This document shows positions 5,103 through 10,494 of a stretch of DNA of 64,000 nucleotides, in pieces. The number at the start of each line of letters is the position of its first letter. Position 1 is the stretch's first letter. This DNA is from Spirochaetia bacterium (GTDB lineage Bacteria > Spirochaetota > Spirochaetia > DSM-16054 > Sediminispirochaetaceae). Below the pieces are notes generated by a model, which was given only the letters and a program-made list of their open reading frames with translations, was not told where the DNA came from and did no database searches. Where the stretch lies: positions 96,001 through 160,000 of the forward strand of contig JAXHMY010000008.1 of assembly GCA_034520965.1 (NCBI GenBank), read 5' to 3'. The position numbers and the translations under genes were made by a program.

Positions 5103-5131
5103 TTGACATAGTTGTAGAGTACTGTTAGCGT
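5103..5131 (+). promoter_or_regulatory. sigma70-type promoter of the ilv-leu leader
   Basis: TTGACA (5103-5108), 17 nt, TAGCGT (5126-5131) preceded by TGn extended -10. Confidence 0.65.
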
Positions 5132-5174
5132 TCTTGTAACTATAAACTTTCACTTATTCTGAGGAGAATGCAGT

Positions 5175-5378
5175 ATGCAGAACGCAATAATGAACGTGAT
5201 GACCGCTATTTCAATTTCTATTATCGCCCTCATCATCATTATTATTGTTGCAAGTCTGTCTCTCCTAATTACCAACCTGCTACTAAGCCTATCGGGCATT
5301 ATTATTCTACTAATTAGTGGAGCTCGAGGTGAGTTCCATTGTTCCTGCCGTAGTAATACGGCCCCTGCACACTGCTAA
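5175..5378 (+). CDS. putative ilv-leu operon leader (attenuator) peptide
   Basis: SD GAGGAG 5161-5166; 15 Ile, 10 Leu, 2 Val in 67 codons; 6 of 10 Leu are CTA; directly upstream of ilvB. Confidence 0.8.
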   Translation: MQNAIMNVMTAISISIIALIIIIIVASLSLLITNLLLSLSGIIILLISGARGEFHCSCRSNTAPAHC

Positions 5379-5570
5379 ATAGCAGCCCGCAGCGGGAAAA
5401 GCATAGGAACAATGAAGCTACCTCGACTCATCCACCCTGGTTATAGGTATATCTAAAGTATAGATATGCAGGTAACCGGGGACCGGTATATCCTAAAGTC
5501 GAGAGCTGCTGCCGATTGTTCCTCCTTTTCTCACTCCTGCGGGAATGTCTTAAATTGAGAGGAGGAGAGG
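5322..5570 (+). promoter_or_regulatory. alternative-pairing RNA switch with anti-Shine-Dalgarno for ilvB
   Basis: Mutually exclusive complementarities 5324-5346/5405-5426, 5386-5427/5498-5543 and 5522-5533/5556-5567. Confidence 0.7.
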
Positions 5571-7238
5571 ATGAAAGGCGCGAGAATACTGGTTGAAGCA
5601 TTAAAAAAAGAGGGAGTTGATACTCTTTTTTGTTATAACGGCGGGGCCGTTATTTCGATTTTTGATGAGCTTTACACCCACGGTAAAGAGATCAATTTAA
5701 TCCAGCCCCGGCACGAGCAAGGGGGAACCCATGCTGCTGATGGGTACGCCCGTTCAACCGGCAAACCGGGGGTTGTATTAGTAACCTCCGGTCCGGGGGC
5801 TACCAATACCATCACCGGTATTGCTACCGCATATATGGATTCGGTGCCCTTGGTGGTGTTTACCGGGCAGGTGTCTACCGGAATGATAGGGACCGATGCG
5901 TTTCAGGAAGCTGATACGGTGGGCATCACAATGCCCATTACTAAAGCCAACTTTCTGGTAAAGAACGTAGAGGAACTTGCTTCTACGGTGAAGAAGGCCT
6001 TCCATCTGGCTATCACCGGCAGACCGGGTCCGGTGGTTGTGGACATCCCCAAGGATGTTCAGATGGACGAGACCGATTTTTCCTACCCCCTTACTCCCGA
6101 CTTGCCCGGATATCGGCCCAAGGATAGCGGCCATCCTCGCCAAGTGAAAACCCTGAAAAAATACCTTCATGAAGCCCGTAAGCCGGTGGTCATCTCCGGT
6201 GGAGGGGTAAACAGCGCCGGAGCAACCGAGCTGATGAACGAGTTCTGTGATCGCTACGGTGTACCGGTGGTGACAACTCTGCTGGGCCATGGAGTTTCCC
6301 CACAGCATGAAGAGCTCAATTACGGACCAATCGGAATGCACGGTTCTCTGTACGGTAACTATGCCCTGCAAAATTGTGACCTGCTTATGGCATTCGGGAC
6401 CCGCTTCTCCGACCGTATTATGGGGGATCCCGATGTGTTCGCCGAACAGGCTCGAATTGTTCACGTAGATATTGATGCTGCAGAAATCGGAAAGAACATT
6501 TCTGTTGATTTGCCGATAGTGGGGCCGATTTCCGGTGTGTTGGAGGAGCTCAACCGCGAGGAGAGCTACGCTGACTATTCCAAGTGGGTAGAAGAACTCC
6601 GAGCATACCGTAGCGAAAACCCCCTCGAATTTGATCAAAGCGATGTTTTAAAGCCGCAATACCTTATCCAACTTGCACAGAAGTACTTTCCCGAAAATAC
6701 CATAGTAGCCTCCGATGTAGGCCAGAACCAGATGTGGGTGGCTCAGTACTTTCACTTTCATCGCGGCCGTCGTCTGCTTACCTCCGGAGGCCTTGGTACA
6801 ATGGGCTACGGCCTGCCTGCGGCTATTGGTGCTGCAGTTGGGAACCCGGATGCCCAAGTACTGACGGTATCCGGGGATGGGGGCTTCCAAATGAATATGC
6901 AGGAAATGGCTACCGTGAAGCAGTACGGGCTGAAAGTAAAAATGCTGGTTCTGGACAATAGTTGCCTCGGTATGGTGCGCCAGTGGCAGCAGTTGTTATT
7001 TGATAAGCGCTACTCAGGTACATGCATGAATGATAACCCGGATTTCGGCTTGATGGCAAAAGCAATGGGTATTCCTTCATTGAAGCTTGAAAAAGTTTCC
7101 GAGGCCGAGCAGACAATGAAGGCCTTTGCCGAGAGCGAGGGGAGTATGCTGCTGCATGCCGTGATTGAGGGCGAAGAGAACGTGGTTCCGATGGTACCGG
7201 CGGGAAAACCTTTAGATAAAGTAATTCGCAAAATCTAG
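5571..7238 (+). CDS. ilvB: acetolactate synthase large subunit
   Basis: RHEQGG.HAADGYAR, TSGPGATN, TSGGLGTMGYGLPAAIGA, GDGGFQMN, LGMVRQWQ. Confidence 0.95.
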   Translation: MKGARILVEALKKEGVDTLFCYNGGAVISIFDELYTHGKEINLIQPRHEQGGTHAADGYARSTGKPGVVLVTSGPGATNTITGIATAYMDSVPLVVFTGQVSTGMIGTDAFQEADTVGITMPITKANFLVKNVEELASTVKKAFHLAITGRPGPVVVDIPKDVQMDETDFSYPLTPDLPGYRPKDSGHPRQVKTLKKYLHEARKPVVISGGGVNSAGATELMNEFCDRYGVPVVTTLLGHGVSPQHEELNYGPIGMHGSLYGNYALQNCDLLMAFGTRFSDRIMGDPDVFAEQARIVHVDIDAAEIGKNISVDLPIVGPISGVLEELNREESYADYSKWVEELRAYRSENPLEFDQSDVLKPQYLIQLAQKYFPENTIVASDVGQNQMWVAQYFHFHRGRRLLTSGGLGTMGYGLPAAIGAAVGNPDAQVLTVSGDGGFQMNMQEMATVKQYGLKVKMLVLDNSCLGMVRQWQQLLFDKRYSGTCMNDNPDFGLMAKAMGIPSLKLEKVSEAEQTMKAFAESEGSMLLHAVIEGEENVVPMVPAGKPLDKVIRKI

Positions 7239-7249
7239 GAGGAAAAACA

Positions 7250-7767
7250 ATGGGTGAAGATAAAAGTACTTATACAGATCATGTAATTTCAATGCTGGTT
7301 TTTAATCATCCGGGAGTGTTGTCAAAGATTACCAGTTTAATTACACGGCGGGGATTTAACATCGACAGTATTGCCGCCGGGCCGACCAAAGAGAAGGATA
7401 TGTTCCGGCTCACTATTATGGTAAAGGGGGATGATCGGAGTATCGAACAGATCCAGAAGCAGTTATATAAGATTGTGGACACCTTCAAAATTATGACTAT
7501 CCACCCGGCTCGGAAGGTTGAGCGTGAAATCGGCCTGATCAAAGTGAAGGCTCCGATGGAAGAGCGAAACGAGGGCTGCAGATGGTAAAATGTATTCAAA
7601 AGGTTCAGATACCTGACTCAAGTACCAGTCGGTTTGTTGTTGGATAACCAGAGCAGTGATGAGGTCGATTGCTTTATCAGTTTGTTTCCACTGTTAATCA
7701 GATTGTGGAAGTCGCCAGGACAGGAATCGTGGCGATGGATCGTTGGGAGAAAAACGGTGCATCTTGA
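7250..7767 (+). CDS. ilvN: acetolactate synthase small (regulatory) subunit, frameshifted
   Basis: N-terminal [26 protein letters not shown]-terminal [14 protein letters not shown] in another frame ending TGA 7765-7767; indels between about 7570 and 7700. Confidence 0.85.
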
Positions 7768-7810
7768 GGTGCAGTGGGAAGCAATAAAATTAAAATTTAA
7801 GGAGAAAAAA

Positions 7811-8804
<994 letters not shown>

Positions 8805-8814
8805 GGAGATAGAT

Positions 8815-10494
8815 ATGAGCAATCAGGTAAAGGTGTACGATACGACCCTGCGGGACGGCGCTCAGTCGGTGGGGGTTACCTTTCTCTCTGCATGATGAAG
8901 TGCGGTGATGGAAGCCCTTGATGATATGGGGATGCACTATATCGAAGCCGGTTGGCCCGGTTCGAATCCGAAGGATGCGGCTTTTTTTGAGGCCGCCCAG
9001 TCCATACGGCTGCGTAACTCACGCTTAGCTGCTTTTGGTTCAACCCGTATGAAGAATACCAAAGTTGAACAGGACCGCAATCTGGACTTGCTGCTGCGCA
9101 GCAATGTGCCGGTGATTACCATTTTCGGAAAGTCCTGGGATCTGCATGTGCTTGAGGCGTTGGGGACAAGTCCTGAGGAGAACCTGGAGATGATTTACTC
9201 TTCCGTACGTTACTTAAAATCGCGGGTGGATGAGGTAGTGTTCGATGCCGAGCACTACTTCGACGGAGTGAAAGCGAATCCCGAGTACGCCTTTGCCACT
9301 TTGAACGCAGCCGCGGAAGCCGGAGCGGATTGGCTGGTGCTGTGTGATACCAATGGAGGTACTCTCCCGGACGCCTTCCAGCGTGAGACAGAGAAGGTTA
9401 TCGACCGCTACTCTTTGCCGGTCGGCGTTCATGCGCATAACGATTCTGATTCGGCTGTAGCAAACTCACTTTTAGGGGTGGGAGCCGGTGCGCAGATGGT
9501 GCAGGGAACCATTAACGGTTTAGGCGAGCGATGCGGGAACGCAAACTTGTGCAGTGTAGTGCCGAATTTGAGCCTGAAACAGTCCTATTCAACGGTCGGT
9601 GAGGAGAATATCCGCAAACTGCAGAAGGTCTTCTCCACTTCTCGTATCGGAGATGTCGAATACTACCCCGATCGAGCACATGCCCTTTGTGGGACAGCAT
9701 GCTTTCAGCCATAAGGGGAGAATTCGTGTATCAGCGGTACGCAAAAACCCCCTGACCTACGAACACATTGACCCCGAGCTGGTCGGAGACAGTCGTTTTA
9801 CCACTGTCTCAGAGCTCTCGGGAAAGAGTAATATTATTGAAAAGACTAAAAATATGGGTCTTGGTCAGGAGTTGAGCGGTGAGGCAGCCGGCAAAATTGT
9901 GGAAAAGGTAAAAGAACTGGAGTCACAGGGCTATCACTTTGAGGGTGCGGAAGCCTCCTTCGAACTTCTATCGGCCGCTCTGATGGGTTCACTGAAAGAG
10001 TACTTTACCCTGCACGGGTACCGAATTATGATCTGGAACAATGGGGACGGGAATACCTGGTCTGAAGCTACTATAAAAGCCTCTGTTCCGGAGGATGTGT
10101 CCCATCAACAGGGTCACAGTGAAGCTGTTGAACACACCTCTGCCGACGGCAGCGGACCGGTTGAGGCCTCTGGCAGAAGCCGCTGGAAAGGCGCTGGAGA
10201 AAATTTCATCCGCATATTAAGAATACCCGCCTTACCGATTACAAGGTGCGTATTTTGAACGAGGAATCGGGAACCTGCGCACTTACTCGGGTAATCATAA
10301 ATACTTCCGATGAAGAGACCAGCTGGGGAACAGTGGGAGTTTCGGAGAACATAATAGAGGCCTCATGGCAGGCTTTAACCGATTCTCTCATTTACAAATT
10401 GAAAAAAGACGAAGCCAAACGGGCTGCTGACGGCGAAAAAACAGATGCGTCAGTCGATAATGGAAAGGAGCATGTATATGGGACGATATCTTAA
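8815..10494 (+). CDS. cimA: citramalate synthase, several frameshifts
   Basis: YDTTLRDGAQ at 8836; YIEAGWPGSNPKD, GKSWDLHV, FDAEHYFDG, LCDTNGG, GERCGNANL, VSELSGKSN, FEGAEASFEL, WGTVGVSENIIEASWQAL across four frame segments. Confidence 0.88.

Follow-up and report, generated by a model that had tools for sequence, protein, structure and literature searches.

The window, a 64,000-nt stretch of DNA from a Spirochaetia bacterium of the family Sediminispirochaetaceae, was found to carry an operon in the order ilvB-ilvN-ilvC-cimA-leuA-leuC-leuD-leuB (genes other than ilvB were assigned by best NCBIfam match), with ilvB as the first gene and the pathways for Ile and Leu both represented. The leader element described here lies within the 497 nt that separate ilvB from an upstream gene carrying a heptaprenyl-diphosphate-synthase-I domain (Table 1). 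TTGACA and TAnnnT boxes at the spacing of the window were detected in all 15 leaders tested; a consensus promoter scan did not flag the window's own copy. Further downstream (7250-10494), ilvN (112 aa), ilvC (split) and cimA (in three pieces) are frameshifted, and single-base indels compared to the L002 locus (ilvN and ilvC) and to RNA contigs suggest assembly errors.

Table 1. Predicted features of the ilvB leader (window coordinates).
Feature	Position	Strand	Details
Sigma-70 promoter, predicted	5103..5131	+	TTGACA 5103-5108, 17-nt spacer, TAGCGT 5126-5131; start near 5138
Leader ORF Shine-Dalgarno	5161..5167	+	AGGAG-type site ahead of leader ATG in 15/15
Hairpin S	5162..5266	+	leader SD and start paired with codons ~20-31; closes the leader's own RBS
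Leader ORF, 67 codons	5175..5378	+	15 Ile, 10 Leu, 2 Val
Last control cluster	5298..5315	+	Ile-Ile-Ile-Leu-Leu-Ile
Hairpin P	5315..5341	+	11 bp; -14.3 kcal/mol; hides A; may act as protector or at a pause-type position
Segment A	5320..5347	+	inside leader ORF; named parts 5324-5330, 5337-5346
Hairpins h1, h2, h3	5347..5396	+	within A:B loop; h2 at stop codon; h3 hides 5' part of B
Segment B	5386..5429	+	B0 5386-92, B0' 5394-5401, B1 5404-14, B2 5420-29; partner A or C
Inner hairpin	5435..5481	+	common to both states; ~100-nt spacer between B and C
Segment C	5498..5543	+	C1 5498-5503, C2 5515-23, C3 5525-32 with U4, C4 5537-43; anti-SD 5522-5533
Segment D	5556..5574	+	ilvB Shine-Dalgarno and start codon; opening cost in text
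ilvB	5571..7238	+	acetolactate synthase large subunit; NCBIfam TIGR00118 above cut-off

Conservation was examined in 17 Sediminispirochaetaceae genomes of four genera; the taxonomic order contributed no further genomes. An orthologue of the window's ilvB was present in 16 of the 17, and in each of these 16 it was preceded by an Ile/Leu/Val (ILV)-rich leader of 54-67 codons. Searches of genome and metagenome contigs for further ilvB relatives added one such leader (L139, on a metagenome contig). When loose patterns of the leader DNA were run against 401 genomes of the class and genome contigs, only chance matches were returned; a plasmid search gave no match, and a look-up by sequence returned nothing similar. 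We regard the leader as a real, conserved and family-restricted regulatory element. Two further observations were made: family genome G011 (95% complete) gave no ilvB match with the window's ilvB as query, and the nearest ilvB orthologue outside the family (L012; 67% identity, same type of upstream gene) has no leader ORF before ilvB.

The leader ORF is C-rich, and all 27 ILV codons among its 67 fall within codons 1-47, leaving the last 20 codons ILV-free. CTA accounts for 6 of the 10 Leu codons compared to 6.2% genome-wide, and Ile is the final control codon in 14 of the 15 leaders listed. The leader peptide matched no Pfam or NCBIfam model; a functional membrane peptide was not favored, based on the missing domain match and on the coincidence of its conserved C-terminal residues with RNA helices. 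Further candidate reading frames, one starting with ATG at 5412 and several mini-ORFs within the loop of C:D, lack conservation and were rejected.

The initial annotation of this DNA had described a four-segment RNA switch. Its segments A, B, C and D were all recovered, and it had overlooked two hairpins, S and P. As soon as 100 nt of the ORF have been made, hairpin S was found to bring the opening cost of the leader RBS up to 9.3-18.8 kcal/mol, in 15 of 15 leaders (background median about 6 and 90th percentile about 11 kcal/mol). This cost was above the mean of synonymous shuffles in 14 of 14 leaders, with at most 2 of 40 shuffles as good in 7 of them, and covariation was modest (13 of 500 shuffles). 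A ribosome on codons 20-36 lowered the cost from about 15 to 8-10 kcal/mol. Self-closing of the RBS by +100 nt was also detected in 9 of 12 classical leaders at paralogous ilvB loci; in the paralogue leaders L047-L057, codons near a conserved Val-Pro-Gly-Phe end look complementary to the RBS. Hairpin P begins within the last Ile codon and showed two-sided changes at 5 of its 11 pairs, with 0 of 500 shuffles as good. It is weak in L008, L039 and L139 and absent from the leaders of genera g2 and g4. A hairpin between the last Ile/Leu codons and 5316-5322 was discarded as not needed: its stability is low, at -0.8 to -8.2 kcal/mol, and P prevails over it in 7 of 10 leaders.

Three helices beyond these hairpins can be formed by the four segments. 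The two named parts of A pair with 5405-5414 and 5420-5426 of B; B pairs instead with C through 5386-92/5537-43, 5394-5401/5525-32, 5405-13/5515-23 and 5422-27/5498-5503, around the inner stem; and C pairs instead with D over 12 bp (5522-5533 with 5556-5567). All of these pairings had been proposed by the initial annotation and were confirmed, and its view of A:B, B:C and C:D as mutually exclusive helices in a ribosome-read leader is supported, with covariation in P, A:B and B:C. The minimum free energy (MFE) fold of the naked leader (5310-5590) was A:B plus inner stem plus C:D at -115.1 kcal/mol (z -6.69; 0 of 200 shuffles as good). Segment C is misaligned by MAFFT, such that RNAalifold and pair counts were unable to score B:C and C:D directly, and duplex shuffles and swap tests were used instead. 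Compared to dinucleotide shuffles, the A:B duplex scored between z -2.8 and z -7.0 in all 16 family leaders, starting at most about 6 nt from the final control codon in all 16; with two inner hairpins it was 92.8% paired with 4 two-sided changes. B:C scored between z -3.5 and z -7.3 in all 10 leaders of the genus-g1 type. It was not significant against shuffles in 3 of 3 g2 leaders, yet was the MFE fold there when A was masked, and the duplex shuffle test detected no B:C in 3 of 3 g4 leaders. For C:D the shuffle test was weaker: in 5 of 10 leaders, no more than 13 of 300 shuffles did as well. Cognate pairs outperformed swapped ones, p being 0.0014 for B:C on six representatives, 0.017 for A:B and, as a weak result, 0.028-0.067 for C:D, among kin that are not independent of one another. 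In L220 a three-way match was observed, with TTA in C and TAA in both B and D.

The proposal that C:D hides the ilvB SD was supported, with signs of selection in both opening cost and matched changes. C:D folds locally in 11 of 11 g1-type leaders (-12 to -27 kcal/mol). The local opening cost of the ilvB start in the window was 21.0 kcal/mol, a value reached by only 1 of 591 starts in the genome; among the 11 leaders the cost was within the top 5% of these 591 starts for 7 and ordinary for 4. With the leader naked, opening the ilvB SD cost 7.5-15.1 kcal/mol in all 11. Thus, the default fold of the naked leader is predicted to hide the downstream ilvB SD; judged from sequence and comparison, the SD is hidden in A:B plus C:D and freer in B:C.

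The initial annotation further held that stalling in the last control cluster (5298-5315) lets the ribosome cover part of A and thereby favors B:C. This trigger was analyzed by constrained folding, in which the ribosome was taken to cover 12 nt past the codon (compare the 26-nt footprint of PMC13236596, with which this agrees), and by a home-made, helix-level simulation of co-transcriptional folding with borrowed rates and no pseudoknots. With the full leader and the A-site anywhere from 5286 to 5325, stalls on control codons included, C:D stayed at 0.99-1.00 at equilibrium, and the window SD opened only when the A-site was past 5328. Across 11 leaders, opening the ilvB start cost 1.7-5.5 kcal/mol with A covered versus 3.6-16.9 with a stall on the last codon; the stall on the last Ile/Leu codon lowered the cost by more than 4 kcal/mol in 2 of the 11 and raised it in 6. 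Before D is made, B:C was the MFE fold in every state, and thus kinetics decide. Naked RNA formed P, then A:B, then C:D in the simulation, which speaks against a default in which it stays in P plus B:C. When a stalled ribosome was included the SD was shut in 16 of 17 runs; the one open run (B:C 0.99) had the ribosome at the last Ile, a footprint of 12 nt and k0 at its fastest setting (1e8). The stall trigger therefore mostly failed, in the window at equilibrium and in nearly all kinetic runs; a stall on control codons did not free the SD directly, and the SD opened when A was covered. Among the other genera, the g4 leaders share A:B, yet no ribosome position opened their SD, and SD access changed little in 2 of 3 g2 leaders.

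A single moving ribosome was found to set the outcome by its lag. At lags of up to 100 nt, A:B plus C:D formed with an SD-free fraction of 0.03-0.08; at 130-230 nt B:C formed, with an SD-free fraction of only 0.26-0.59; at 280 nt A:B was formed again. In these simulations the switch thus responds to a ribosome that crosses A, not to one parked on the control codons; B:C forms if the ILV-free last 20 codons are being read during transcription of C. We put at about an even chance that the element is a timing-based translational attenuator, an Ile/Leu sensor with access to the ilvB RBS as output, decided during transcription of the leader. In the folding models, B:C wins if C emerges while a ribosome that trails the RNA exit by 130-230 nt sits on A or at the stop codon, and A:B plus C:D forms otherwise. 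Hairpin S may restrict the leader to about one pioneer ribosome, and RNA polymerase may wait at hairpin P. When Ile and Leu are plentiful, the ribosome would be gone before C is made, A:B would re-form and C:D would hide the SD, with Rho presumably silencing the operon behind an untranslated ilvB. When they are short, a delay of a few seconds at the last control codons would leave the ribosome over A as C appears, such that B captures C and ilvB is translated. In some members, a ribosome on the last Ile may contribute by masking the outer part of A. This timing model gives no clear role to the long run of Ile codons further upstream.

The output is probably translational rather than a terminator, based on the selection on C:D, the extension of B:C past a U-run, the poor tail of the window, the restriction of loading by S, and the position of terminators in this genome mostly 24-35 nt after stop codons, as would be expected with transcription-translation coupling (crude scan; 139 terminators found, 25 of them within 12 nt). 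An SD output combined with the function of the operon points to the starved state as ON; this polarity, with B:C as the ON state, had been put forward by the initial annotation and is still the likelier one, though by way of ribosome timing and not of masking by a stall. In a race model with one ribosome synchronized at P, B:C rose from 0.07 (fed) to 0.62 as reading of control codons slowed from 15 to 1 per s; the response was non-monotonic, since B:C dropped back to 0.05 under severe shortage (0.25 codons per s). When ribosomes re-initiated at 0.3-1 per s, B:C was 0.67-0.91 in the fed state and fell on starvation, which is the terminator polarity. When re-initiation was gated by S and pauses were imperfect or finite, the gain in B:C was only about 1.3-2.7-fold and vanished in strong starvation, and ribosomes per transcript rose 2-5-fold. 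These models do not settle polarity, which in them depends on ribosome loading. Reopening of C:D by ribosome trains after transcription was rejected based on barriers of 16-21 kcal/mol (about 17 from a loop toehold); a C:D loop toehold of at least 5 nt is present in only 5 of 11 leaders. The slow late opening of C:D that these barriers suggest counts against the timing reading, as do the non-monotonic response, the small gain under S-gated loading, the terminator polarity under frequent re-initiation, the self-closing RBS of classical paralogue leaders and the g4 leaders without an SD switch.

The terminator scan detected no site in the leader, its sole match being inside ilvB. The initial annotation had reported no hairpin plus long U-tract: a canonical terminator (a compact GC-rich hairpin with a long U-tract) is indeed lacking, although a terminator-like run of U4-U7 follows the B1:C2 stem in 9 of 11 leaders (5526-5529 in the window) and is interrupted in L008 and L220. 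The tail after this stem in the window reads CCUUUUCU, and the stem closes a folded loop of ~100 nt. In the window's lineage a CC before the U4 gives a perfect anti-SD and a weaker terminator. In L007, L008 and L139, matched changes show B:C to continue beyond the U-run, which argues that B:C exists in read-through RNA. Rfam searches, with leader, T-box and riboswitch families included, returned no match to the leader up to E 10 and none at the gathering score in 8 loci. Paralogous ilvB loci provided a comparison: 12 of 13 in the family have a Val/Leu leader of 35-40 codons with a GC-rich hairpin and at least U6, their terminators combining U6-U9 runs with 12-bp GC stems. The second ilvB of the window's genome (L049; G000:C7, leader at 108168, minus strand) has a 38-codon Val/Leu leader without Ile and a canonical terminator of a 12-bp GC stem plus U7. 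The two ilvB paralogues thus appear to sense different amino acids. Classical terminators were also found in at least 7 outgroup loci among 30 ilvB loci. At six classical ilv leaders of Spirochaetia (L017, L019, L020, L022, L025 and L026) no SD precedes the leader ATG, which is only 0-3 nt away from where transcription is predicted to start, and these uORFs are apparently leaderless.

Six RNA runs had word shares of 0.05-0.07, and four were compared as assembled contigs of a relative of ~90-95% identity. Leader contigs begin at 5165-5238. One stops at 5515 and one aligns to 5529 with 34 letters unaligned; in the two other runs, contigs span the leader into ilvB. Termination near 5530 and a structured decay remnant fit the leader-only ends equally, and the models are not separated by them.

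These data bear on the main rival, classical polarity with a weak, atypical terminator, which we consider unlikely: P would act as protector, A:B as antiterminator in starved cells, and B1:C2 with the short U-run would terminate near 5530 in fed cells, where ribosomes occupy A, C:D being a second lock on read-through RNA that is opened by later ribosome passage. The order P, A:B, B:C matches I:II, II:III, III:IV as laid out in PMC1183508, stalls on ILV codons yield A:B, the U4-U7 runs and the contig ends in 2 of 4 runs (weak, as contigs only) are of the expected kind, and with frequent loading B:C falls monotonically on starvation with all 27 codons used. Set against this are tails that are poor next to those of the paralogues, with the window's stem drawn around a ~100-nt folded loop; a B:C fraction of just 7% for a coupled single ribosome when fed; a lock of 14-17 kcal/mol on the SD of read-through RNA that is not easily opened; and the two runs that cross into ilvB. 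According to PMC1183508, early release of the ribosome before region IV is available favors II:III; a long III-IV gap is thus poorly suited to a terminator, and the 100-nt spacer would make II:III the rule.

The parked ribosome as sole trigger, with B:C forming and persisting while the last Ile/Leu cluster is occupied and outer A masked, is improbable. Its points are the closeness of A:B to the last control codon in 16 of 16 leaders, a barrier from A:B to B:C that drops from 14.5 to about 11-12 kcal/mol with A1 masked, the single open run, and a working equilibrium in L220 and L013-L015. These are opposed by the 16 shut runs and the failed equilibrium in the window, by stalls on the two CTA codons, which melt P and favor A:B, and by a design in which only 1 of 27 control codons would count. 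We give similarly little credence to Rho-dependent termination or nuclease cleavage as the primary output, with the helices gating a Rho or cleavage site. Rho is encoded in 17 of 17 family genomes, the leader ORF is rich in C, and the g4 leaders (L009, L010 and L011), which are without B:C, have unstructured 40-nt stretches of C11-15/G1-2 between B and the ilvB SD; against this, the C-rich stretch of the g1 type is segment C itself, paired in both states with 4-9 G per 40 nt, and selection on C:D would be left unexplained. The g4 stretches resemble Rho sites. Least probable is an inverse switch, in which ilvB is translated only while ribosomes flow through the leader (long-range translational coupling) and Ile/Leu shortage is OFF: the equilibrium costs, read literally, agree with it in 10 of 11 leaders, where covering A eases opening more than a stall on the last codon does, a second ilvB exists in the genome, and starvation-OFF control is described for S. 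aureus rbfL in PMC13009471, but repression of an Ile and Leu operon on shortage would be maladaptive and hairpin S would cut ribosome flux when fed.

Returning to the timing-based attenuator, we tentatively suggest, at somewhat less than even chance, that it is a delay-timer turning the textbook logic round: early release of the ribosome, the leak route in trp, has become the OFF route, and stall position is no longer the signal. What would count is the moment, relative to synthesis of an anti-SD strand lying 180 nt further on, at which the sensor-free stretch is crossed by one pioneer ribosome, kept single by the self-closing leader RBS. Such an element would have originated alongside the classical paralogue in the same genomes, with sister genera placing simpler or Rho-type outputs on the A:B core. 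The leaders form a compact natural series on one A:B core: one genus has an SD relay, another a shorter version and a third a Rho-like one, and the genome itself also carries a copy with a classical terminator. This series makes testable how a terminator attenuator turns translational, and also whether a switch can take its signal from the timing of the ribosome instead of the place where it stalls.

Branched-chain attenuators are usually described as terminator switches, and to our knowledge the tested amino-acid-sensing translational attenuators are few. Like ermC, a multi-hairpin relay with a ribosome on the uORF, the present element would be thrown by the uORF ribosome; unlike here, the signal for ermC is drug-induced arrest. 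The same likeness and difference apply to vmlR (PMC9226507), which also uses pausing, responds to drug-induced arrest and ends in an intrinsic terminator. Our literature search found no description of this leader, subscription papers such as the 2010 survey cited in PMC4833913 being outside its scope. A Leptospira ilvB motif, given as a weak riboswitch candidate in PMC8632094, may bear on novelty.

The element shares with classical attenuators (trp and his, PMC1183508; M. tuberculosis ilvB, PMC13236596; C. glutamicum ilvBNC, PMC11857589; and the ilvB paralogue of the window's genome) a conserved uORF rich in codons for the products of the operon, rare CTA codons, a protector and mutually exclusive helices that overlap the end of the uORF near its stop. 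It differs in its 54-67 codons versus 23-40 in the classical leaders examined, in having no GC-rich hairpin with U6 or more, in the ~100-nt spacer between B and C, and in the extra C:D helix on the SD. In the actinobacterial LEU element (PMC1262725), Leu codons pair with the leuA SD to form a base stem, and there is a pseudoknot; its authors doubt a leader-peptide mechanism. Common to both are a branched-chain leader, the lack of a terminator and the proposed SD sequestration. Here, however, the ilvB SD pairs with C, more than 200 nt downstream of the codons, and the codons pair with the leader's own SD; with no base stem of Leu codons and SD, the suggestion of the initial annotation that the architecture is distinct from LEU is supported. 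The LEU pseudoknot was not seen, but the folding tools used predict none, and a B0:C4 loop contact would be one.

The sole tested amino-acid-sensing translational attenuator that our literature search found, the polycysteine attenuator Ms5788A of M. smegmatis (10.1101/834739), pairs its control codons directly with the SD; its default duplex hides the SD and shortage frees it, as reporter mutants showed. The two systems have in common an amino-acid-rich uORF, no terminator, and a default duplex hiding a downstream SD. In Ms5788A the control codons pair with the SD region, whereas here they never pair with the ilvB SD; the signal would instead travel via P, A, B and C over 250 nt, from a leader with its own SD and a self-closing hairpin. 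In its way of working the element resembles leader-peptide attenuators, most likely the translational Ms5788A, minus direct masking and with no canonical terminator.
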